Sequence record: LR597651
Source: Escherichia phage Lambda_ev058
Strand: one strand, 5' to 3'
DNA length: 47,678 nucleotides
The notes below the pieces were generated by a model, which did not search any database, was not told the origin of the DNA, and saw nothing but the letters and a program-made list of their open reading frames with translations. This document shows positions 4,394-28,498 of the stretch, piece by piece. Position 1 is the first letter of the stretch. The number at the start of each line of letters is the position of its first letter. The position numbers were made by a program, and so were the translations under genes.

Positions 4394-5693
4394 TCTCCCG
4401 CATATTGCCAGTATGGCCTTTAATGAGCCGCTGATGCTTGAACCCGCCTATGCGCGGGTTTTCTTTTGTGCGCTTGCAGGCCAGCTTGGGATCAGCCGCC
4501 TGACGGATGCGGTATCCGGCGACAGCCTGACTGCCGGAGAGGCACCCGCGGCGCTGGCGTTATCCGTTGATGATGACGGACCACGACAGGCCCGCAGTTA
4601 TCAGGTCATGAACGGCATCGCCGTGCTGCCGGTGTCCGGCACGCTGGTCAGCCGGACGCGAGCGCTGCAGCCGTATTCGGGGATGACCGGTTACAACGGC
4701 ATTATCGCCCGTCTGCAACAGGCTGCCAGCGACCCGATGGTGGACGGCATTCTGCTCGATATGGATACGCCAGGCGGGATGGTGGCAGGGGCATTTGACT
4801 GCGCTGACATCATCGCCCGTGTGCGTGACATAAAGCCGGTATGGGCGCTGGCCAACGACATGAACTGCAGTGCAGGTCAGTTGCTTGCCAGTGCCGCCTC
4901 CCGGCGTCTGGTCACGCAGACCGCCCGGACAGGCTCCATCGGCGTCATGATGGCTCACAGTAATTACGGTGCTGCGCTGGAGAAACAGGGTGTGGAAATC
5001 ACGCTGATTTACAGCGGCAGCCATAAGGTGGATGGCAACCCCTACAGCCATCTTCCGGATGACGTCCGGGAGACACTGCAGTCCCGGATGGACGCAACCC
5101 GCCGGATGTTTGCACAGAAGGTGTCGGCATATACCGGCCTGTCCGTGCAGGCTGTGCTGGATACCGAGGCTGCAGTGTACAGCGGTCAGGAGGCCATTGA
5201 TGCCGGACTGGCTGATGAACTTGTTAACAGTACCGATGCGATCACCGTCATGCGTGATGCACTGGATGCACGTAAATCCCGTCTCTCAGGAGGGCGAATG
5301 ACCAAAGAGACTCAATCAACAACTGTTTCAGCCACTGCTTCGCAGGCTGACGTTACTGAGGTGGTGCAAGCGACGGAGGGCGAGAACGCCAGCGCGGCGC
5401 AGCCGGACGTGAACGCGCAGATCACCGCAGCGGTTGCGGCAGAAAACAGTCGCATTATGGGGATCCTCAACTGTGAGGAGGCTCACGGACGCGAAGAACA
5501 GGCACGCGTGCTGGCCGAAACCCCCGGTATGACCGTGGAAACGGCCCGCCGCATTCTGGCAGCTGCACCACAGAGTGCACAGGCGCGCAGTGACACTGCG
5601 CTGGATCGTCTGATGCAGGGGGCACCGGCACCGCTGGCTGCAGGTAACCCGGCATCTGATGCCGTTAACGATTTGCTGAACACACCAGTGTAA
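4374..5693 (+). CDS. C: head maturation protease / scaffold C
   Basis: The track ORF 4260-5693 contains the lambda gpC sequence from V-TAELRNLPHIASMAF. A GTG at 4374 preceded by GAGGAGGA gives a 439-aa product, equal to lambda C. ClpP/S49-like region present. Confidence 0.9.
5088..5693 (+). CDS. nu3: scaffolding protein Nu3 (in-frame internal start within C)
   Basis: In-frame ATG at 5088 (MDATRRMFAQKVSAYTG...) at the position equivalent to lambda Nu3 (5132 in lambda); shares the C stop codon. Confidence 0.8.
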   Translation: MDATRRMFAQKVSAYTGLSVQAVLDTEAAVYSGQEAIDAGLADELVNSTDAITVMRDALDARKSRLSGGRMTKETQSTTVSATASQADVTEVVQATEGENASAAQPDVNAQITAAVAAENSRIMGILNCEEAHGREEQARVLAETPGMTVETARRILAAAPQSAQARSDTALDRLMQGAPAPLAAGNPASDAVNDLLNTPV

Positions 5694-5702
5694 GGGATGT
5701 TT

Positions 5703-6035
5703 ATGACGAGCAAAGAAACCTTTACCCATTACCAGCCGCTGGGCAACAGTGACCCGGCACATACGGCAACCGCGCCCGGCGGATTGAGTGCGAAAGCGCC
5801 TGCAATGACCCCGCTGATGCTGGACACCTCCACCCGTAAGCTGGTTGTGTGGGATGGCACCACCGACGGTGCTGCCGTTGGCATTCTGGCGGTTGCTGCT
5901 GACCAGACCAGCACCACGCTGACGTTCTACAAGTCCGGCACGTTCCGTTATGAGGATGTGCTCTGGCCGGAGGCTGCCAGCGACGAGACGAAAAAACGGA
6001 CCGCGTTTGCCGGAACGGCAATCAGCATCGTTTAA
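5703..6035 (+). CDS. D: head decoration protein D
   Basis: 110-aa product from [12 protein letters not shown]..., matching lambda gpD as recalled. Confidence 0.95.
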
Positions 6036-6090
6036 CCTTACCCTTCATCACTAAAGGCCGCCTGTGCGGCTTTTTTTACGGGATTTTTTT

Positions 6091-7116
6091 ATGTCGATGT
6101 ACACAACCGCCCAGCTGCTGGCGGCAAATGAGAAGAAATTTAAGTTTGATCCGCTGTTTCTGCGTCTCTTTTTCCGTGAGAGCTATCCCTTCACCACGGA
6201 GAAAGTCTATCTCTCACAAATTCCGGGACTGGTAAACATGGCGCTGTACGTTTCGCCGATTGTTTCCGGTGAGGTTATCCGCTCCCGTGGCGGCTCCACC
6301 TCTGAATTTACACCGGGATATGTCAAGCCGAAGCATGAGGTGAATCCGCAGATGACCCTGCGTCGCCTGCCGGATGAAGATCCACAGAATCTGGCGGACC
6401 CGGCTTACCGCCGCCGTCGCATCATTCTGCAGAACATGCGAGACGAAGAGCTGGCCATTGCTCAGGTCGAAGAGATGCAGGCCGTTTCTGCCGTGCTTAA
6501 GGGCAAATATACCATGACCGGTGAAGCCTTCGATCCGGTTGAAGTGGATATGGGCCGCAGTGTGGCGAACAACATCACGCAGTCCGGCGGTACGGAGTGG
6601 AGCAAGCGTGACAAGTCCACGTATGACCCGACCGACGATATCGAAGCCTACGCGCTGAACGCCAGCGGTGTGGTGAATATCATCGTGTTTGATCCGAAAG
6701 GCTGGGCGCTGTTCCGTTCCTTCAAAGCCGTCAAGGAGAAGCTGGATACCCGTCGCGGCTCTCATTCCGAGCTGGAGACAGCGGTAAAAGATCTGGGCGA
6801 AGCGGTGTCCTATAAGGGGATGTATGGCGATACGGCGATCGTCGTGTATTCCGGACAGTACGTGGAAAACGACGTCAAAAAGAACTTCCTGCCGGACAAC
6901 ACGATGGTGCTGGGGAACACTCAGGCACGCGGTCTGCGCACCTATGGCTGCATTCAGGATGCGGACGCACAGCGCGAAGGTATTAACGCCTCTGCCCGCT
7001 ACCCGAAAAACTGGGTGACCACCGGCGATCCGGCGCGTGAGTTCACCATGATTCAGTCAGCACCGCTGATGCTGCTGGCTGACCCTGATGCGTTCGTGTC
7101 CGTACAACTGGCGTAA
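6091..7116 (+). CDS. E: major capsid protein E
   Basis: 341-aa product from MSMYTTAQLLAANE..., matching lambda gpE as recalled; a stem-loop lies upstream in the D-E spacer. Confidence 0.95.
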   Translation: MSMYTTAQLLAANEKKFKFDPLFLRLFFRESYPFTTEKVYLSQIPGLVNMALYVSPIVSGEVIRSRGGSTSEFTPGYVKPKHEVNPQMTLRRLPDEDPQNLADPAYRRRRIILQNMRDEELAIAQVEEMQAVSAVLKGKYTMTGEAFDPVEVDMGRSVANNITQSGGTEWSKRDKSTYDPTDDIEAYALNASGVVNIIVFDPKGWALFRSFKAVKEKLDTRRGSHSELETAVKDLGEAVSYKGMYGDTAIVVYSGQYVENDVKKNFLPDNTMVLGNTQARGLRTYGCIQDADAQREGINASARYPKNWVTTGDPAREFTMIQSAPLMLLADPDAFVSVQLA

Positions 7117-7157
7117 TCATGGCCCTTCGGGGCCATTTTCTCTCTGTGGAGGAGTCC

Positions 7158-7553
7158 ATGACGAAAGATGAACTGATTGCCCGTCTTCAGGTGCTGGGTG
7201 AGCAACTGAACCGTGATGTCAGCCTGACGGGGACGAAAGAAGAACTGGCACTCCGTGTGGCAGAGCTGGAAGAGGAGCTTGATGACACGGATGACGCTGC
7301 TGGTCAGGACACATCTGTCAGCCCGGAAAATGCGCTGACCGGACATGAAAATGAGGTGGTATCAGCGCAGCCGGATACCGTGACTGATACGGCTGATCTG
7401 GTCACGGTTGTGGCACTGGTGACGCTGCATACTGATGCACTTCACGCCACGCGGGATGAGGCTGTGGCATTTGTGCTGCCGGGAACGGCGTTCCGTGTCT
7501 CTGCCGGTGTGGCAGCTGAAATGACAGAGCGCGGCCTGGCCAGAATGCAATAA
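7158..7553 (+). CDS. FI: DNA packaging protein FI
   Basis: Product from MTKDELIARLQVLGEQLNRDVSLTGTKEELALRVAELEEELDD..., matching lambda gpFI with one residue fewer than lambda (131 vs 132 aa). Confidence 0.9.
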   Translation: MTKDELIARLQVLGEQLNRDVSLTGTKEELALRVAELEEELDDTDDAAGQDTSVSPENALTGHENEVVSAQPDTVTDTADLVTVVALVTLHTDALHATRDEAVAFVLPGTAFRVSAGVAAEMTERGLARMQ

Positions 7554-7564
7554 CGGGAGGCGCT

Positions 7565-7918
7565 GTGGCTGATTTCGATAACCTGTTCGATGCTGCCATT
7601 GCCCGCGCCGATGAAACGATACGCGGGTACATGGGAACGTCAGCCACCATGACATCCGGTGAGCAGTCCGGTGCTGTGATACGTGGTGTTTTTGATGATC
7701 CTGAAAATATCAGCTATGCCGGACAGGGCGTGCGCGTTGAAGGCTCCAGCCCGTTCCTGTTTGTCCGGACTGATGATGTGCGGCAGCTGCGGCGCGGCGA
7801 CACGCTGACCATCGGTGAGGAAAACTTCTGGATAGACCGGATTTCGCCGGATGATGGCGGAAGCTGTCATCTCTGGCTTGGGCGGGGCGTACCGCCTGCC
7901 GTTAACCGTCGCCGCTGA
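7565..7918 (+). CDS. FII: head completion protein FII
   Basis: 117-aa ORF matching lambda gpFII as recalled (MADFDNLFDAAIARADETIRGYMG...). Confidence 0.95.
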   Translation: MADFDNLFDAAIARADETIRGYMGTSATMTSGEQSGAVIRGVFDDPENISYAGQGVRVEGSSPFLFVRTDDVRQLRRGDTLTIGEENFWIDRISPDDGGSCHLWLGRGVPPAVNRRR

Positions 7919-7929
7919 AAGGGGGATGT

Positions 7930-8508
7930 ATGGCCATAAAAGGTCTTGAGCAGGCCGTTGAAAACCTCAGCCGTATCAGCAGAACGGCGGTGCCCGGTGC
8001 CGCCGCAATGGCCATTAACCGCGTTGCTTCATCCGCGATATCGCAGTCGGCGTCACAGGTTGCCCGTGAGACAAAGGTACGCCGGAAACTGGTAAAGGAA
8101 AGGGCCAGGCTGAAAAGGGCCACGGTCAAAAATCCGCAGGCCAGAATCAGGGTTAACCGGGGGGATTTGCCCGTAATAAAGCTGGGTAACGCGCGGATTG
8201 TCCTGTCCCGACGCAGGCGTCGTAAAAAGGGGCAGCGTTCAGCCCTGAAAGGTGGCGGCAGCGTGCTTGTGGTGGGAAACCGTCGTATTCCCGGCGCGTT
8301 TATTCAGCAACTGAAAAATGGCCGCTGGCATGTTATGCAGCGTGTGGCCGGGAAAAATCGTTACCCCATTGATGTGGTGAAAATTCCGATGGCGGTGCCG
8401 CTGACCACGGCGTTTAAACAGAATATTGAGCGGATACGGCGTGAGCGTCTTCCGAAAGAGCTGGGCTATGCGCTGCAGCATCAACTGAGGATGGTAATAA
8501 AGCGATGA
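7930..8508 (+). CDS. Z: tail completion protein Z
   Basis: 192-aa ORF at the lambda Z position and length. Confidence 0.9.
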   Translation: MAIKGLEQAVENLSRISRTAVPGAAAMAINRVASSAISQSASQVARETKVRRKLVKERARLKRATVKNPQARIRVNRGDLPVIKLGNARIVLSRRRRRKKGQRSALKGGGSVLVVGNRRIPGAFIQQLKNGRWHVMQRVAGKNRYPIDVVKIPMAVPLTTAFKQNIERIRRERLPKELGYALQHQLRMVIKR

Positions 8509-21710: not shown

Positions 21711-22568
21711 CTAATTGGGTGATAACAGATCCTGTGTATGGGAGTTTCCCTTTTTGCGTGCGTTGATGCTGGTAACGGCAAACGTCATGATGAACAAAAC
21801 CGCGAATAAGACGACAATCGTCGGAGCTGGTGCGCTGTCGATAAAAAAGGACAACCAGACACCAGTCATTGACACTATTACCGATATGCCAGTCGCCAGT
21901 AGGAGCGCAATATGAAAGCGTTGTGTCAGGAGTACCGCAATGGCGCCAGGCGCAATGAGCAGAGAAATGGAGAGAATGATACCTACCGCTTTCAGCGTCG
22001 CCACAATGGTCAGAGAGACCATGCACAGCAGCCCATAATGCAGCCATCTCGTATGCAAACCGCTTACCTGCGCCTGTTGATAATCAAAGCTGAACAGCAA
22101 AAAATCCCGCCATTTTACGCTAATAACAAGTGTAACCAGCCCGGCAATAATCATCGTCTGGATTATATCGCCGATGGTTATCCCGAGCATGTCGCCGAAA
22201 AGAATATGGTCAAGATGTACGTCTGGTTTGACTGCAATATACAAGATCAGACCTGCGGCAAACATGCCAGAAAAAACAATCCCCATCACTGTATCTTGCT
22301 TGATTCGGCTGTTGTCTTTCAGGTATCCCGTCGCCACCGCGCAGAATACTCCGGCGACGAATGCCCCTGTAGCCAAAGGTAACCCCAGAATCCAGGCAAG
22401 CACGATGCCAGGAAAAACCGCATGACTCATCGCGTCACCCATCAGTGCCCAACCTTTCAGGACCAGAAAGACCGACAGCAGCGCACAGGGTATGGAAACT
22501 ACCAGTGAAATCAGCAGTGCGTGACTCATAAAGGTGAACTGCAGTGGCTCCAGTAATAATGCCATCAT
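21711..22568 (-). CDS. sitD: Mn/Fe ABC transporter permease SitD
   Basis: 285-aa polytopic membrane protein of the MntC/ZnuB permease type; last gene of a four-gene operon with overlapping stop/start codons. Confidence 0.85.
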   Translation of the reverse strand: MMALLLEPLQFTFMSHALLISLVVSIPCALLSVFLVLKGWALMGDAMSHAVFPGIVLAWILGLPLATGAFVAGVFCAVATGYLKDNSRIKQDTVMGIVFSGMFAAGLILYIAVKPDVHLDHILFGDMLGITIGDIIQTMIIAGLVTLVISVKWRDFLLFSFDYQQAQVSGLHTRWLHYGLLCMVSLTIVATLKAVGIILSISLLIAPGAIAVLLTQRFHIALLLATGISVIVSMTGVWLSFFIDSAPAPTIVVLFAVLFIMTFAVTSINARKKGNSHTQDLLSPN

Positions 22569-23422
22569 GAGCGATCCTCCAGCGCCTTATGCGCACGCCG
22601 ACGATTTGCCAAAAGCCCATGGGTGGGCGCAAAGACAAATGCTAAAAGAAACAGCAGTGTCTGCGCCACCACGATGATTCCACCTGTCGCGCCGTCCAGA
22701 AAGTAACTGACCCACGCGCCGAGGAAACTGGTTACACTGCCAATAGTTACAGCAATCATGAGCAGGCGGGGAAAACGATCGGTTAACAACCATGCTGTTG
22801 CACCGGGAGTCACCACCAGACAGATCACCAGAAAGGCACCAACCGTTTGCAGCGCCGCAACGGTCGAAACCGACAGCAGGGTGAAGAAGAGGAGTTTTAA
22901 TCTGCCCGGATGCAATCCAATAGCACGGGCGTGATTCTCGTCGAAAAAGGTCACCATAAGATCTTTCCATTTGAAAAAAAGCACGATGATCGAGAGAATG
23001 CCAATGATAGTGAGTTGCAGGATATCCGCCGGATCGATTGCCAGAATATTGCCCAGGACGATGGTCTGAATGTTCACAGATGTCGGGTTCAATGACACCA
23101 TAAACAGCCCCAGGCCAAAAAAGGACGAGAAGATCAGACCGATGATGGCATCTTCTTTTAAGCGGGTGCGTTGGTTAAGAAACAGCATGCTGCCCGCAGC
23201 CAGTCCGCCGGAAAAGAAGGCTCCCAGAGAAAACGGAAGCCCCAGCATATATGCCCCCGCAACACCCGGGACAATAGAGTGCGACAACGCATCGCCAATC
23301 AGCGACCAGCCTTTTAGCATCAGATAGCATGACAGGAAAGCGCAGAGACCGCCGACCATCGCCGAGACCCACATCGCATTGAGCATATATTCATAGCTGA
23401 AGGGTTCCAGTAGCACGTTCAT
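22565..23422 (-). CDS. sitC: Mn/Fe ABC transporter permease SitC
   Basis: 285-aa permease paralogous to SitD; start overlaps the sitB stop. Confidence 0.85.
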
Positions 23423-24246
23423 CTTTCTTCCCTCTGCACCGCTGACGGTCGATGAGCCACAAAAGGGCGTTCATCGTCAGTAATAATGCTTTCTTCCGAG
23501 CCGTTAAGTGTGACATGGCGCAGTACGCCGCTAAAAGCCAGCTCTAGGTTCTCGGCTGTAAAAGTGGTGTCTGTCGGCCCGCTTGCCAGGACGGTGCCTT
23601 TGACCATGACCGTATAATCGCAAAATGTCGTGACGGATCCGAGATTGTGTGTTGAGACAAGCATCGTTTTGCCTTCCGCGCGTAACTCCCTCAACAGGCT
23701 GATGATTTTGGCTTCGGTTTTCACATCAACGCCAGTAAAAGGTTCATCCAGCAGGATCACATCACCCTGCTGTGCAATCGCTCTCGCCAGAAAGACGCGT
23801 TTCTTTTGTCCACCGGAAAGCTCGCCGATTTGTCGATGGCGAAAATTCACCATATCGACACGTTCCAGCGCATCGGTGACAATTTGACGATCCCTCTTTT
23901 TGGCGATACGCAACATACCCATATGCCCATAGCGGCCCATCATCACCACATCTTCCACCAGTACAGGAAATGACCAGTCAACATCTTCTGACTGAGGGAC
24001 GTAGGCAACCAGGTTTTTCTGTAACGCCTGTCGCGTGGGAATACCCAGAACAGATATCTTTCCGCTGGTCAGACGCACAAATCCCATAATCGCTTTAAAC
24101 AACGTCGATTTTCCGGAACCGTTTACCCCAACCAGAGCGGCAATAGATCCACTTGGTACTGTGAAGGATGCATCGCGCAGTGCTGTGTGCCCGTTACGCC
24201 AGGTGACAGTAACATCATTAACGACAATGCCTGCAGATTGCATCAT
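23419..24246 (-). CDS. sitB: Mn/Fe ABC transporter ATP-binding protein SitB
   Basis: 275-aa protein with Walker A (GVNGSGKST), ABC signature (LSGGQ) and Walker B (ILLDEP). Confidence 0.9.
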
Positions 24247-25160
24247 TATTTCTCCCTTTTCCCAGCTTTAATTCCCTGTACCAGCGTACTGGTAGTAACC
24301 TTAAGAAGGTCGATATACGTCGGTACCGGGCCGTTTTCTGTGCTCAGGGAATCGACATAGAGCACACCGCCGTAGTGTGCGCCGGTTTCACGCGCAACCT
24401 GACGCGCTGGTTTATCGGAAATCGTACTCTCGCTAAAGACTGCCGGGATATGATTTTTCTTAACTATATCAACAACCTTACGTACCTGCTGCGGTGTTCC
24501 TTGTTGATCGGCATTAATCGGCCACAGATAAAGCTCTTTTAGCCCCAAATCGCGTGCGAGATAAGAAAAAGCCCCTTCACTGGTGACCATCCATCGCTGA
24601 TTCTCAGGGAGTTCCGTAATCTGCTTACGCAGGGGGGCAAGGGTTTGGGTAATCTTGGCTTTATAAGTATCGGCATTGCGTTGGTAGGTTTGTGCATTTG
24701 CCGGATCGTATTTTATCAACGCATCACGAATATTATCGACGTAAATCAGAGCATTATCTGGCGACATCCATGCATGGGGGTTAGGTTTGCCCTCATAGGG
24801 TCCTTCGGTGATCCCTACAGGCGTCACACCCGAAGAGACAATTACTTCTGGAACCCCATTGAGATGCTGGTAAAAGCGTTGGAACCACAATTCCAGATTC
24901 ATACCATTGGCGAGAATCAGTTGTGCCCCCTGCGCACGTTTAATATCGCCAGGGGTAGGCTGATACTCATGAATTTCTGCACCAGGCTTGGTTATGGATG
25001 AGACTTCTGCAGCATCTCCCGCCACGTTTTTGGCCATATCCGCGATGATGGTAAATGTTGTAATGACCTTGAATTTTTCAGTTGCACTTGCCTGAAATGC
25101 GATCGAGCAGGTGAGTGCGAGCCCCCCCAAGAGCATGGTTACTTTTTTTATCGAGTGCAT
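24246..25160 (-). CDS. sitA: periplasmic Mn/Fe-binding protein SitA
   Basis: 304-aa protein with an N-terminal signal peptide and a TroA/cluster-9 solute-binding fold signature; first gene of the operon. Confidence 0.9.
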
Positions 25161-25192
25161 AATTTAGTACCTATAGTGAGCAAAATTAGAAC

Positions 25193-25214
25193 AAACATAG
25201 CAACGGCTATGTTT
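25193..25214. promoter_or_regulatory. MntR box upstream of sitA
   Basis: Direct: perfect inverted repeat AAACATAGC-AACG-GCTATGTTT. It matches the E. coli/Salmonella MntR operator (established). Confidence 0.75.
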
Positions 25215-25236
25215 TATAGCACAGCCTATACAAAAT

Positions 25237-25256
25237 GAAAATGATTATCATTAGCA
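25237..25256. promoter_or_regulatory. Fur box upstream of sitA
   Basis: Direct: GAAAATGATTATCATTAGC matches the Fur consensus GATAATGATAATCATTATC at 16 of 19 positions. Confidence 0.65.
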
Positions 25257-25557
25257 ACTTTGAGGCCCAAAACAGGGATTAGGTTGTTTCCTGCTGGCGA
25301 CGCGTTATTGAGGAAAAAAGTAAGGCAGCTAGTAGGCTTTGAAATAACGTTTTGCGGTTGGCTGATGCAATTTCGAGAGTGCATGTATTGAATGATTTCT
25401 AGCCGTTACTGATTTTCGTATTTTTTGTATGGGAGGATTTGCACCTCCCCCCACCGAGCCTCCATGACTTTACTCCACTGTCTCTAGGGCTGCTGTGTGC
25501 CAGGAGCGGAAGCAGGGGGGGCCAGAGACTCCTTAAAAGTTGATAGCTCGTTTTGCA

Positions 25558-25650
25558 GGGAGACTTACACGGTAAGCGTTATTCCGAAGAGCTTAAAATT
25601 GAAGCAGTCAAACGGGTTGTTGAGCGTGTTTATGCGCTGCCATCTGATTA
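25558..25650 (+). pseudogene. IS3-family transposase OrfA N-terminal remnant
   Basis: Short frame translating to GDLHGKRYSEELKIEAVKRVVERVYALPSD-stop. The KRYSEEhKhEAVK motif is typical of IS3-family OrfA N-termini; there is no start codon or full-length ORF. Confidence 0.3.
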
Positions 25651-25847
25651 ATCGACGGAAGCAGTTCCGTTTGGTCTATGATGCAGTTGTCCGGCAGGCG
25701 CTCTGTGACGCAAAAGAACGATAGGAGTAGCATTGAAGTGAACGAGGTTATGCTTGTCTTATATTATCCTCTATTTTAAAAACATCAGCTGGTTGTGTAA
25801 GAGTTTTTATTGTTTTATCTTGTTGACTTTGCTTTTATGAAAACAGA

Positions 25848-26618
25848 GTGATTGATACAATGAAAACCTTAAGTGGGAAAGAGTTTAGGAAATTATTTAA
25901 TCGTTATGAGACAGGATTCTATCTAAGTGAGTTTGAATACTTAAAGGACTTTGATCCTTTGTTTCCTGAATGCGTAGGGAAAGAATTAAAGTTGGGTTAT
26001 AAACGAAAAGTTGATGTATGGTGCGAAGAGGATGCTGCGCTATATGCAGAATTTATAGCTACAAAAGAAAGGCTGAAAAGAGGCCGGTTAATCCTAAAAA
26101 TAAACCAAGTGTGGTCGCGTGTATATCCTGCTTATATTTATGCAATTGAAGAAAGAATAAATGTCAGGGCAAAGGGGAGAGAGTCATTTAAGTATGAAAC
26201 TGTGCAAGAAAAACAATGTAAACTTTCCATAATGTTAGATGGTCTGAAAGACCTTGAATGTGAAATAGCTATGATTTCAAGTGAGTTTGAAATTGAAAAA
26301 CACTCTATGCACTATTTTTATATGATTTTTGATATTGAACGCTATATAAATGACTGCAGTTACTTTGTTTTTTCTGCTGCTAAAGTTGTTAAAGGCGTGA
26401 TTCAATGCATTGGTTACATTGACAAAAATAACAAAGCAAGTTGCGATGAATTTTATTCAGGCAGCTATGAATGCTTGGATGATGATCAGGAAACACTGAA
26501 CTATTTAAATGAATCATGCGCAGAGGGTATAGACGCTGATAAAGATCTCATCAGGAAGAATGAGTTATTAGCCTTATCCCTGAAGGAATTGTATCAACTT
26601 CTCGTTTCAAAAAAATAA
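25848..26618 (+). CDS. hypothetical protein, AT-rich accessory gene
   Basis: 256-aa ORF with strongly AT-biased codons, unlike the neighbouring phage genes; no recognised domain. Lies in the variable b-region between the sit operon and attP. Confidence 0.6.
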   Translation: MIDTMKTLSGKEFRKLFNRYETGFYLSEFEYLKDFDPLFPECVGKELKLGYKRKVDVWCEEDAALYAEFIATKERLKRGRLILKINQVWSRVYPAYIYAIEERINVRAKGRESFKYETVQEKQCKLSIMLDGLKDLECEIAMISSEFEIEKHSMHYFYMIFDIERYINDCSYFVFSAAKVVKGVIQCIGYIDKNNKASCDEFYSGSYECLDDDQETLNYLNESCAEGIDADKDLIRKNELLALSLKELYQLLVSKK

Positions 26619-27084
26619 CAAGTAATACGGCGAGCGATATGACGTGCCATGGGATATCCGCACCCAGCAGCATGTTGTCTCCACGATGTCCGCAGTTCGC
26701 TCATAATAGACATTCACTACAGTTATAGTAGAAGGTATGCATGCTGCTGAGTGGGGAAAGTGTGAAAGAAAAGAAGACAGCTGCTTTGTTTGTCGTCACG
26801 TTTATCTTCATTGGCTATGCAAGTCGTAATACAAGGCGGGACAAAACTGAGACACATAAGGCCTCGCAATGGCTTGCAAGGCCACACATGTATTGAGATG
26901 TTAATAAAATGTAGACTTGTAATTTTGATATAAATGGTAGAGAAAATCTTTCCCCAAAATAAAAACGAACGTCAATGAAATCAAACGGTTGAATAAAGTT
27001 GATTTTGGCTAATACAAAGACAAGAAAATAATATTTATGATTAAATATCAGCGAGTTGAATACATAATTTTTATATACTGTTAC

Positions 27085-27242
27085 GCCATATGGGCTGGAC
27101 TGAAGCCGCAGACCTGATTGTTAAAGGTATGGAAGGCGCAATCAACGCCAAGACTGTAACCTATGACTTCGAACGTCTGATGGAAGGCGCTAAATTGCTG
27201 AAATGTAGCGAGTTTGGCGACGCGATCATCAAGAACATGTAA
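27085..27242 (+). other. icd: phage-borne copy of the 3' end of icd (attP core region)
   Basis: Reading frame ends ...[52 protein letters not shown]-stop, i.e. the C-terminus of isocitrate dehydrogenase. Phage 21 and e14 integrate at the icd 3' end and carry a replacement copy (established). Confidence 0.8.
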
Positions 27243-27265
27243 TCACTACATGTGTTAAATATTTA

Positions 27266-27294
27266 AACGGGCGTGTTATACGCCCGTTGTTTTA
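27266..27294 (+). terminator. intrinsic terminator after the icd fragment
   Basis: Direct: AACGGGCG-loop-CGCCCGTT stem followed by GTTTTAT. Confidence 0.6.
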
Positions 27295-27309
27295 TGATGA
27301 TGTAAAATC

Positions 27310-27345
27310 TTCCCCAAAACTTTCCCCAAAACCCTTCCCCAAAAC
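27310..27345. repeat. three tandem TTCCCCAAAAC repeats, candidate integrase arm-type sites
   Basis: Direct: TTCCCCAAAAC at 27310-27320, 27322-27332 and 27335-27345, abutting the int 3' end; a fourth copy at 26949-26959 lies on the other side of the icd core. Confidence 0.6.
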
Positions 27346-27355
27346 TGGCTATTTT

Positions 27356-28498
27356 CTATGCTGTTTTGATATCTACGATAACCCAGTCTTTACCACGATC
27401 ATCATTGTATCGGTCGGTCATTTTTCTGGATTTATGGCCTAACAACTTTTGCGTATCCAGACCCTGTTCCCGATATAACCGTTCTGACAGAGATCGCTGC
27501 TCATGAAATGTGGGCGCAGTTCCTTGCTCCCATTTTATGCCACATTTTTCCCTGGCCTTTTTAAAAGCCGTTGTCAGAGTATTTGCAGAAACCTGGTCTC
27601 CTCTGTTTGCTTGAGAGGTAGTGTGACGGTAATGGACCAGATATTTACTAACAACAGCATCCCTGCACTGAGATATAACTTCACGAAGGGTAATATTCAG
27701 AGCATCGCATTTCAGGTTAAGCGGAATAGCAAGTTTTGAACCGGTTTTTTCCTGAGTAATGTGCAACATGTCGTCCCAGATATCAGAGAATTTCAAATTG
27801 CAGATATCACCTAAACGTTGTCCAGTAACAAGAGCAAGTAGCATGCCGCATTTTAAATAGGGCTGCCGTCTGCTTACGCTTTCAAATATTGCCTGCCATT
27901 CGGGCAGTGACAATCTTTGGCGGTTTACTCGATTTCGCGGTTGTTTTGTTGCCTGCGCTGGGTTAAATCCTGGCGGAACATGTCCTGCGTGTTGTGCTTC
28001 TTTGAAGACGTCGATCAACACCATTCTCACGACTTGCGCCATCCTGTTATGACCTTCAGCCTTTACAGCATCAATTATTTCGGCAATATCAAGTGCGGTA
28101 ATATCCTTGAGGTGTTGCATTCCACAATGCTCACGGAAAAGACGAATGGGTTTGCCTTTTTGCCGATAGGAGTTGGGTCTTAGTTCATTATGTTGCAGCC
28201 TGTCCTCCTGGATAGAAATATATTTATCAAGCCATTCTGTCACCGTAATTTCTGAGCGCCTGCCTTTCATTCTTTCCAGACGCTCATTGACGCTTAATAT
28301 TTGTCGGGTACGTTGTTCAGCAATAATGGTATTTGCTTCAGTAGCAACTTGTTTTGCTTCATTCTCATCAGTTCCTAAGCTATGAAAACGACCGGATAGT
28401 GGATGTTTGTATTGCCAATATACCTTTCCGGTTCGCTTATCTAATTTGCAATATAAATTGGGTATAGAGATTTTGTGAGATCGGGGTCTAGCAGCCAT
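27356..28498 (-). CDS. int: tyrosine integrase (lambda Int family, icd-targeting type)
   Basis: 380-aa ORF; C-terminus ...LLGHKSRKMTDRYNDDRGKDW resembles the lambda Int catalytic tail (LGHKS...Y..DDRG). Adjacent to xis and attP. Confidence 0.9.
   Translation of the reverse strand: MAARPRSHKISIPNLYCKLDKRTGKVYWQYKHPLSGRFHSLGTDENEAKQVATEANTIIAEQRTRQILSVNERLERMKGRRSEITVTEWLDKYISIQEDRLQHNELRPNSYRQKGKPIRLFREHCGMQHLKDITALDIAEIIDAVKAEGHNRMAQVVRMVLIDVFKEAQHAGHVPPGFNPAQATKQPRNRVNRQRLSLPEWQAIFESVSRRQPYLKCGMLLALVTGQRLGDICNLKFSDIWDDMLHITQEKTGSKLAIPLNLKCDALNITLREVISQCRDAVVSKYLVHYRHTTSQANRGDQVSANTLTTAFKKAREKCGIKWEQGTAPTFHEQRSLSERLYREQGLDTQKLLGHKSRKMTDRYNDDRGKDWVIVDIKTA

Follow-up and report, generated by a model that had tools for sequence, protein, structure and literature searches.

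A narrowly distributed gene with a predicted DNA-binding domain in a repeat-bounded cassette beside attP of Escherichia phage Lambda_ev058

The gene and its position beside attP

The genome of Escherichia phage Lambda_ev058 (record LR597651; 47,678 nucleotides, in the following termed the window) carries an AT-rich gene in the b-region next to attP. A program-made list gives it as an open reading frame (ORF) of 256 aa at 25848-26618 on the + strand with a GTG start. It is the same gene as gene 31 of phage 21 (CPT_21_31, UMO75446.1; PHROG 20520; WP_001304451.1), with 99% DNA identity over the region. The sequence was already known; it has been deposited many times and is annotated as "hypothetical protein" in every record. 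We view the gene as cargo of a prophage hotspot, encoding a predicted DNA-binding head of the Xis/MerR type on a new body.

The coding sequence is almost certainly 25860-26618 on the + strand (252 aa plus stop). The ATG at 25860 is the start in the PHROG profile, in the phage 21 and RefSeq annotations and in all homologues, and the 12 bases 5' of it vary freely between the homologous loci, which is why we prefer it to the GTG at 25848. The match to PHROG 20520 is full-length (E 1.4e-177), with all 252 profile positions (1-252) aligned to residues 5-256 of the ORF as read from the GTG. The four-codon GTG extension (25848-25859, + strand) is outside the profile and unconserved in the homologous loci, and is probably 5' untranslated region and not coding. 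An earlier note on this DNA, made from the letters alone, had described an ORF of 256 aa; the ORF exists, but its start is almost certainly the internal ATG.

The base composition of the ORF is clearly foreign. GC is 0.341 and GC at third codon positions (GC3) is 0.308, compared to a GC of 0.499 for the whole window and to 0.48-0.52 (GC) and 0.48-0.60 (GC3) for sitA-D. The gene is thus more AT-rich than its neighbours, as had been stated, and a foreign base composition, one of the marks of a lambdoid moron (a foreign gene with promoter and terminator of its own), was found (GC 0.34 against 0.50). Comparison with eight homologues (77-92% DNA identity) gave a dN/dS of 0.21-0.41 and zero frameshifts. 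The length of the homologues is held at 252-261 aa with a mean column identity of 82%, and the exact protein is present on at least 1000 contigs. The ORF is a genuine protein gene under purifying selection.

That the gene is a decaying passenger without present function in this phage is rather improbable. Truncated alleles are frequent and neither a consensus promoter nor a terminator was found, as would be expected of such a passenger, but a dN/dS of 0.2-0.4 across genera, the constant length, the large number of contigs with the exact protein and the conservation of the 5' flank speak against it. The shortened alleles are common in E. coli (clusters P0021, P0022, and P0039) and comprise a 139-aa N-terminal form (181 member sequences) and forms of 127-179 aa.

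The stretch 25400-27300 was found to be 100% identical to several coliphage genomes (Lambda_2E9, 1H12, and others) and 99% identical to classical phage 21, genus Jouyvirus. The order in the phage 21 record is that of the window, i.e., sitDCBA, two tiny ORFs, CPT_21_31 (252 aa), a 51-aa putative membrane protein, the icd 3' pseudogene, attP, int, and xis. Among 5426 complete E. coli genomes, 739 (about 14%) contained at least 80% of the stretch. In lysogen 118UI it forms the end of an icd-integrated prophage and is followed by a displaced icd fragment and iraM. Plasmid carriage was considered and rejected; only six E. coli records match, and at least one of these is chromosome-sized (4.9 Mb), so they are apparently chromosomal pieces.

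The position in the b-region beside attP, as proposed in the earlier note, was borne out. attP (26948-27344, + strand) consists of arm-type sites at 26948 and at 27308-27344 around the icd 3' fragment (27090-27242). Four arm-type sites YYTTCCCCAAAA were found (26948, 27308, 27320, and 27333) compared to 0.03 expected, and the stop codon of the ORF is 330 bp from the left arm. The int gene follows at 27356-28498 on the - strand. On the other side a complete sitABCD iron/manganese ABC transporter operon is located at 21711-25160 on the - strand, with the tail-fibre region on one side of it and the b-region backbone on the other. The presence of sitABCD in phage 21 was already known, and the operon is typical of icd prophages in extraintestinal pathogenic E. 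coli.

Conserved flanks, terminal repeats and the slot

Whatever surrounds the gene, homology between the window and eight other loci starts at 25732-25778 and stops at 26614-26725. Since these limits are constant across loci, about 110 bp on the 5' side and about 85 bp on the 3' side move with the ORF. The non-phage loci are from Citrobacter, Klebsiella, Mangrovibacter, Intestinirhabdus, an Aeromonadaceae metagenome-assembled genome (MAG) and metagenome contigs, and their wider contexts all differ. The homologue is cargo between the conjugation modules of an integrative and conjugative element (ICE) in locus L010, lies in small islands with a 200-aa tyrosine recombinase in L006 and L009, adjoins a type I restriction-modification (R-M) system in L014, and is found among housekeeping genes in L012. 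Judged from these alignments, the gene travels as a portable single-gene cassette with conserved flanks.

The conserved 5' flank (25748-25859, + strand) is a putative promoter/operator region. It holds an invariant GTTGTG.AAGA block, and a candidate -35 (TTGTGT, 25793-25798) and a candidate -10 (TATCTT, 25816-25821) were both picked by eye. The conserved 3' flank (26619-26703, + strand) terminates in the right terminal repeat described below, and RNAalifold gave a weak hairpin only (-8.5 kcal/mol). There were zero Rfam matches on 25100-27400, and none on the array of L010 (6200-10400). In the phage 21 record a "CII binding site" is annotated 5' of the gene (TTGYN6TTGY; window 25810-25823). The motif was found 9 times in the window compared to 11.4 expected by chance, and its first box is unconserved in the non-phage copies. 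It is for these two reasons not evidence of CII control, and a CII-activated promoter was rejected.

The cassette of the window lies within a unit bounded by imperfect inverted repeats. The left terminal repeat TGTGCCAGGAGCGGA (25496-25510, + strand) marks the junction between lambda-like backbone and cargo and resembles the left inverted repeat of an element of the IS3 family of insertion sequences (IS). The right terminal repeat TCCGCAGTTCGCTCA (26689-26703, + strand) is an imperfect inverted copy of the left one and marks the junction back to the lambda-like backbone. These were the only copies in the window at two or fewer mismatches, and the unit between them, 1208 bp, is IS-sized. The same pair of repeats brackets the ORF in L009 and L010 (15-16 nt, 80-81% complementary). 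At the junctions examined, TGTGCCAGRAGCGGA(AG) was found at every left and TCCGCnnnTCGCTCA at every right side, as imperfect inverted repeats with TG...CA termini. In the form of IS ends the repeats read TGTGCCAGRAGCGGAAG...TCCGCTYYTCGCTCA, and they have the 5'-TG...CA-3' ends of IS3-type terminal inverted repeats.

Directly inside the left repeat is a decayed IS3-family (IS911/InsN-like) remnant (25511-25727, + strand), made up of a leader and N-terminal fragments of orfA (25568-25642) and orfB (about 25633-25727). Positions 25570-25642 are 88% identical to an annotated InsN/IS911-like transposase pseudogene, and 25633-25723 match the N-terminal end of an IS3-like orfB with 78% identity. The translation of the orfA fragment, GKRYSEELKIEAVKRVVER, gave a weak match to Pfam HTH_Tnp_1 (E 0.0023; 6.9e-20 for the REL606 relative). 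An IS3-family transposase remnant upstream of the gene had been reported in the earlier note; the remnant is there, but it is not merely upstream, as it lies inside the same repeat-bounded cargo unit. It is shared with the Citrobacter locus L006, in both cases oriented as if the repeat were the left end of the IS, and is absent from L009, L010, L015, and L016. Nothing but decayed orfA/orfB fragments was found inside the left end, and most other copies of the cassette are without them.

From its ends and the remnant, the unit is compatible with a mobile insertion cassette derived from an IS3 element. The data are explained equally well by recombinational exchange, either at the repeats or within the conserved flanks of 140-210 bp. 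The ORF would have arrived in one of two ways, carried by a cassette that derives from the IS3 family, or exchanged through the conserved repeats and flanks. Classical transposition was rejected, as there was neither a target-site duplication nor an intact master IS among the loci fetched.

Traces of IS3-family elements were also found elsewhere. Parts of 25440-25740 (window 25487-25570 and 25633-25723) match 2167 plasmid records, mostly at 80-90% identity and mainly from Klebsiella, Escherichia, and Enterobacter, and on an IncF plasmid (L004) an isolated stretch of 81 nt near klcA corresponds to the left repeat and the IS leader. The plasmid matches point to a widespread IS3-family end or remnant. 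A different IS3-family remnant, which is IS407-like (ATFYTWCKKYGGMELNEV), is located 5' of the cassette flank in Mangrovibacter (L007, 7740-7890) and in the Aeromonadaceae MAG (L014, 1230-1300). Because it joins at the same point as the remnant of the window, IS3-family elements appear to have hit or built the 5' end repeatedly.

The unit is inserted in lambdoid backbone. The left b-region backbone element (25346-25495, + strand) matches lambda 24184-24348 with 80% identity, the correspondence running to 25510 in the window, and 26689-26828 matches lambda 27323-27464 with 81% identity. Part of the left element was present in 2075 of the 5426 E. coli genomes. The right backbone (26704-26896, + strand), the end of which is reached by the match to prophage L022, contains an ORF of 51 aa for which phage 21 has the only annotation. 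Both flanks are matched by lambda and by L022, a prophage of avian pathogenic E. coli, with other cargo between the same repeats. In lambda the cargo is ea31 and ea59, in L022 it is a restriction endonuclease, the 200-aa recombinase and a 290-aa ORF, and in the window it is the IS remnant and the ORF.

A search of lambda against PADLOC identified ea59 as PtuA (E 3.7e-184) and ea31 as PDC-M01B (E 8e-112; PDC-M01A/B). By profile match and flank homology, lambda ea31/ea59 are a Septu-like pair in the same flank-defined slot, and they look like exchangeable cargo of that one slot. Other prophages carry beside the same left element PD-T4-3 (E 1e-139 to 1e-140), a type IV methyl-directed restriction enzyme (E 5e-206) or PDC-S15 (E 7e-99). 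The claim that the slot often holds defense genes therefore agrees with what was found. These findings raise the prior for the ORF being a defense gene, but are no evidence on the protein itself.

Further observations concern the borders of the slot. The ea31/ea59 pair (NC_001416 24335-27340; L023 about 5335-8339) is bracketed by the same TG...CA imperfect inverted repeats as the ORF cassette. The segment 26704-26896 recurs with 85-91% identity at unrelated E. coli island and prophage junctions (near paoD, and beside the O157 pinE / PD-T4-3 region), contains a strong hairpin at 26860-26883, and looks like a common mosaic boundary. A search from the right flank gave mosaic junctions only and no clean empty site.

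The gap of 700 bp between the ORF and sitA is filled by the lambda-type backbone element, the terminal repeat and the IS remnant, and the adjacency of ORF and sit is for that reason taken to be an insertion accident. This bears on the idea that the protein regulates the divergently transcribed sitABCD manganese/iron transporter. The divergent arrangement and a cysteine-rich protein with a MerR-like winged helix (see below) would suit such a regulator, but sit is not adjacent in any non-E. coli locus, and the idea is very improbable. A regulatory link to sitABCD was rejected, as sit is absent from all other loci and insertion junctions are present between sit and the ORF.

The 200-aa tyrosine recombinase consists of the catalytic domain only (Pfam Phage_integrase) and was found in L006 (3385-3987), L009 (7235-7837), and L022 (7339-7941). 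The copies from Citrobacter, Klebsiella, and E. coli share 82-89% identity and adjoin cassettes; in two of the loci (L009 and L022) the same hairpin and the left repeat come after the recombinase. The recombinase may serve cassette exchange or may be cargo itself.

In the Citrobacter/Klebsiella islands and in the ICE, single genes of the arrays are separated by palindromic elements of about 80 nt. These were located at 4854, 6077, 7601/7638, and 8882 in L006, at 6404, 7862, 8833/9030, 9756, and 10206 in L010, and at 891/926, 6567/6604, 7864, 8833/8870, and 11785/11822 in L009, and have the form CAA-YGTCCGCT..AGCGGAC-spacer-GTCCGCT-CYGTGCCAGR-AGCGGACR-TTG. In each, a right repeat of the cassette family seems to be joined directly to a left one. 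The elements could be tandem IS-derived cassettes, attC-like sites or repeats resembling repetitive extragenic palindromes. By eye they loosely resemble RYYYAAC...GTTRRRY, which is a poor match to a core site. An integron gene cassette was rejected, as there was no IntI, the nearby recombinase is the 200-aa catalytic domain only and Rfam was blank on L010 6200-10400.

The predicted protein and its candidate functions

The protein had no match in Pfam, NCBIfam, or PDB sequences. A search with 20 family members and 10 N-terminal domains against Pfam and NCBIfam gave nothing meaningful (HTH_17, Phage_AlpA, MerR, and Excisionase-like were all unmatched), and the sole match of a sequence-profile search of PDB was a de novo design (E 0.06). 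The protein is outside every defined defense, regulator or transposase family tested. The earlier note had recognized no domain, which holds at the sequence level, where PADLOC added a match of 15.6 bits only. To call the gene an orphan was too strong, since 23 clusters at 90% identity were found among 5.8 billion proteins, all of them from Enterobacteriaceae (Citrobacter, Klebsiella, Mangrovibacter, and Intestinirhabdus among them) or from an Aeromonadaceae MAG. A profile search of 1.84 billion representatives at 50% identity gave one full-length cluster plus fragments. The family was present in 3 of 185,579 species-representative genomes, and the three IMG/VR contigs with the protein were all identical to the query. 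Judged by these searches the family is very narrow. We found no functional study of the gene in the literature on phage 21, Jouyvirus or lambdoid hotspots; in the genome announcement of phage 21 (PMC9119081), where HHpred and InterPro were part of the annotation, the gene is given no function.

An AlphaFold2 model of the full-length protein, built on a 20-sequence alignment, had a predicted local distance difference test score of 92.5 and a predicted template modeling score of 0.84. Residues 1-55 form a small beta-alpha-alpha-beta-beta domain, predicted to be a winged helix, and are followed by predicted long helices at 56-110, 115-147, 153-189, and 206-251. The N-terminus and helix 1 are basic (pI 8.6-9.5), as is the sequence of the wing (GYKRK), and the invariant residues K7, R10, K44, K48, and K50 are located in helix and wing. 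The remainder is acidic, with a pI of 4.1-4.4 for the C-terminal helices and of 5.3 overall, and there is no transmembrane segment. Among the nine cysteines, three (C166, C183, and C195) are invariant and one (C205) is nearly invariant; H151 is also invariant. The model describes a soluble protein of two modules, an N-terminal winged helix and an elongated four-helix bundle. The predicted winged-helix fold leads us to suggest that the protein probably binds DNA. The set of Cys166, Cys183, and Cys195, together with Cys205 and His151, may form a metal or redox site.

Structure-based and defense-model searches had been proposed in the earlier note. The fold search suggested a winged helix of the Xis/AlpA/MerR type for residues 1-55, with weak support. 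PADLOC gave no convincing match. The best fold match of the N-terminal domain was an AlpA-family transposon excisionase, and MerR-type regulators (CvkR, HiNmlR, PbrR, CueR, SoxR, BmrR, and TipA) were prominent among the other hits. A likeness to the Xis of the phage itself was rejected, as hhalign with the N-terminal domain gave a probability of 0.1.

The fold hits raise the alternative that the protein is a stand-alone MerR-like transcription factor for lysogenic conversion, which retunes host or prophage genes rather than blocking phages. The winged helix would sit on an operator, and the cysteine-bearing bundle would sense a metal, redox state or a small molecule. Apart from the MerR-type hits, this agrees with the long helix straight after the winged helix, as in MerR proteins, with the invariant cysteines and their C195-x9-C205 spacing, and with the conserved 5' block, where an imperfect palindrome at about 25785-25799 (by eye) could be an auto-operator. 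We nevertheless regard it as doubtful. There is no MerR or helix-turn-helix profile match, the DNA-binding domain of MerR proteins has a second pair of helices that the model lacks, and the cysteines are located in helix 3 and the loop 190-205, not after the first long helix. Scanning and inspection gave no promoter with a 19-20 bp spacer 5' of the ORF or of sitA, and a lone regulator without a conserved target nearby would be odd cargo for a cassette that enters unrelated genomes.

A counter-defense or selfish function (anti-restriction or anti-silencing), or a DNA-binding accessory role in movement or maintenance of the cassette, similar to a recombination directionality factor, is unlikely. 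The excisionase as best fold match, the acidic C-terminal helices and the conserved tyrosine recombinase beside the cassette or array in L006 and L009, and in the same slot in L022, are consistent with such a role. On the other hand, the overall pI is far from that of DNA mimics, most loci are without a recombinase nearby, and cassettes with the same repeats carry unrelated genes, so the ORF is cargo rather than machinery.

We tentatively favour, with less than even confidence, the reading that the gene encodes a stand-alone exclusion or defense protein, expressed in the lysogen and directed at the DNA of phages or mobile elements. It is the genomic context that suggests the defense role, and the conserved 5' block that suggests expression from an own promoter. 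The ORF would be expressed from this promoter in the lysogen. The winged helix of the excisionase/AlpA/MerR type would together with the basic helix 1 bind DNA, the elongated four-helix bundle would mediate oligomerisation and/or sensing, and the cysteine cluster would be a structural or switching site. Acting alone, the protein would prevent the use of foreign DNA by binding to it during entry or replication, or by binding to one of its key promoters. Of the homologues, one shares an array with a T5orf172 protein and another is beside a type I R-M system.

A number of findings weigh against this proposal. No homology ties the protein to defense; among the 5027 models of PADLOC-DB 2.0 the sole hit was PDC-M13C (E 0.0034, 15.6 bits, 25 residues), and there was no significant full-length match. 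The C-terminal bundle resembles generic helical proteins only. Most immediate neighbours of the non-phage homologues match no defense model; of ten neighbours compared, eight were unmatched, one was the T5orf172 protein (PDC-S57 / PD-Lambda-1) and one gave a marginal effector match (E 0.0003). A strict sigma-70 scan found no + strand consensus promoter for the ORF, and a scan of its 3' side found no + strand terminator before 27266, so that of the own promoter and terminator of a moron, the conserved 5' block is what is present. Truncated alleles are common, and the gene therefore seems, from the alleles deposited, to be often inactivated in E. coli lineages and to be dispensable. Finally, a target-site duplication is missing, with CTG on the left compared to TAA on the right in the window, and none in L009 or L010.

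A broader proposal combines a single-gene factor against phages or mobile DNA with TG...CA repeats that define a family of exchangeable cargo cassettes, shuttling defense genes between lambdoid b regions, ICEs, and Enterobacteriaceae islands. The family would be IS3-derived or served by a recombinase, and would include lambda ea31/ea59. We consider this combination speculative and on the whole improbable.

Comparison with known systems

The gene belongs to classical phage 21 and to prophages in about one seventh of the complete E. coli genomes, with urine, blood, and poultry among the sources of the isolates. Its neighbours in phage 21 are those of the window (sitABCD, icd', and attP), and no difference was found. 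The family is narrow and yet has a confident predicted structure, and by flank homology its slot equals the Septu-like slot of lambda. This makes the ORF a cheap and well-defined candidate for a new defense or conversion function.

The N-terminal domain of the model shares with Xis, AlpA, and MerR domains (GIsul2 excisionase 8c3t, lambda Xis 1lx8, CvkR 7xn2, and RacA 5i41) the predicted beta-alpha-alpha-beta-beta order, a length of about 55 residues and a basic wing. MerR-type proteins and RacA also have a long helix after the winged domain, as in the model of the ORF. There was no sequence or profile similarity to these proteins. The second MerR helix pair is missing from the model, nothing specific matched the four-helix bundle, and the protein is four to five times longer than an Xis.

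BstA is reportedly a single prophage protein that acts by abortive infection (Owen et al. 2021), in which a DNA-binding domain at the N-terminus precedes a helical C-terminal region, and it offers a model of phage exclusion by one DNA-binding protein alone. By analogy, the ORF would likewise be one prophage gene with a DNA-binding N-terminus and a helical C-terminus. There was no match to a PADLOC model of BstA, the DNA-binding fold differs, and the ORF belongs to none of the single-protein prophage systems of this kind.

In mobile insertion cassettes and transporter IS, IS ends flank a passenger gene, as in MIC231. The unit of the window differs from these in that it has no target-site duplication, that no intact master element was found and that it is known here from sequence alone. 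It shares with them the TG...CA imperfect repeats, a decayed orfA/orfB remnant inside the left end and in the expected orientation, the length of 1208 bp and the presence of the same ends around different cargo. The shared terminal repeats suggest a concrete route for cargo swapping between phages, ICEs, and islands.

Lambda ea31/ea59 differ from the ORF in being two genes on the opposite strand that encode unrelated proteins, an ATPase and an HNH nuclease. They occupy the same slot, with the same left and right repeats beside attP, and a repeat-bounded cassette shared with lambda is a more unusual observation than the ORF itself.

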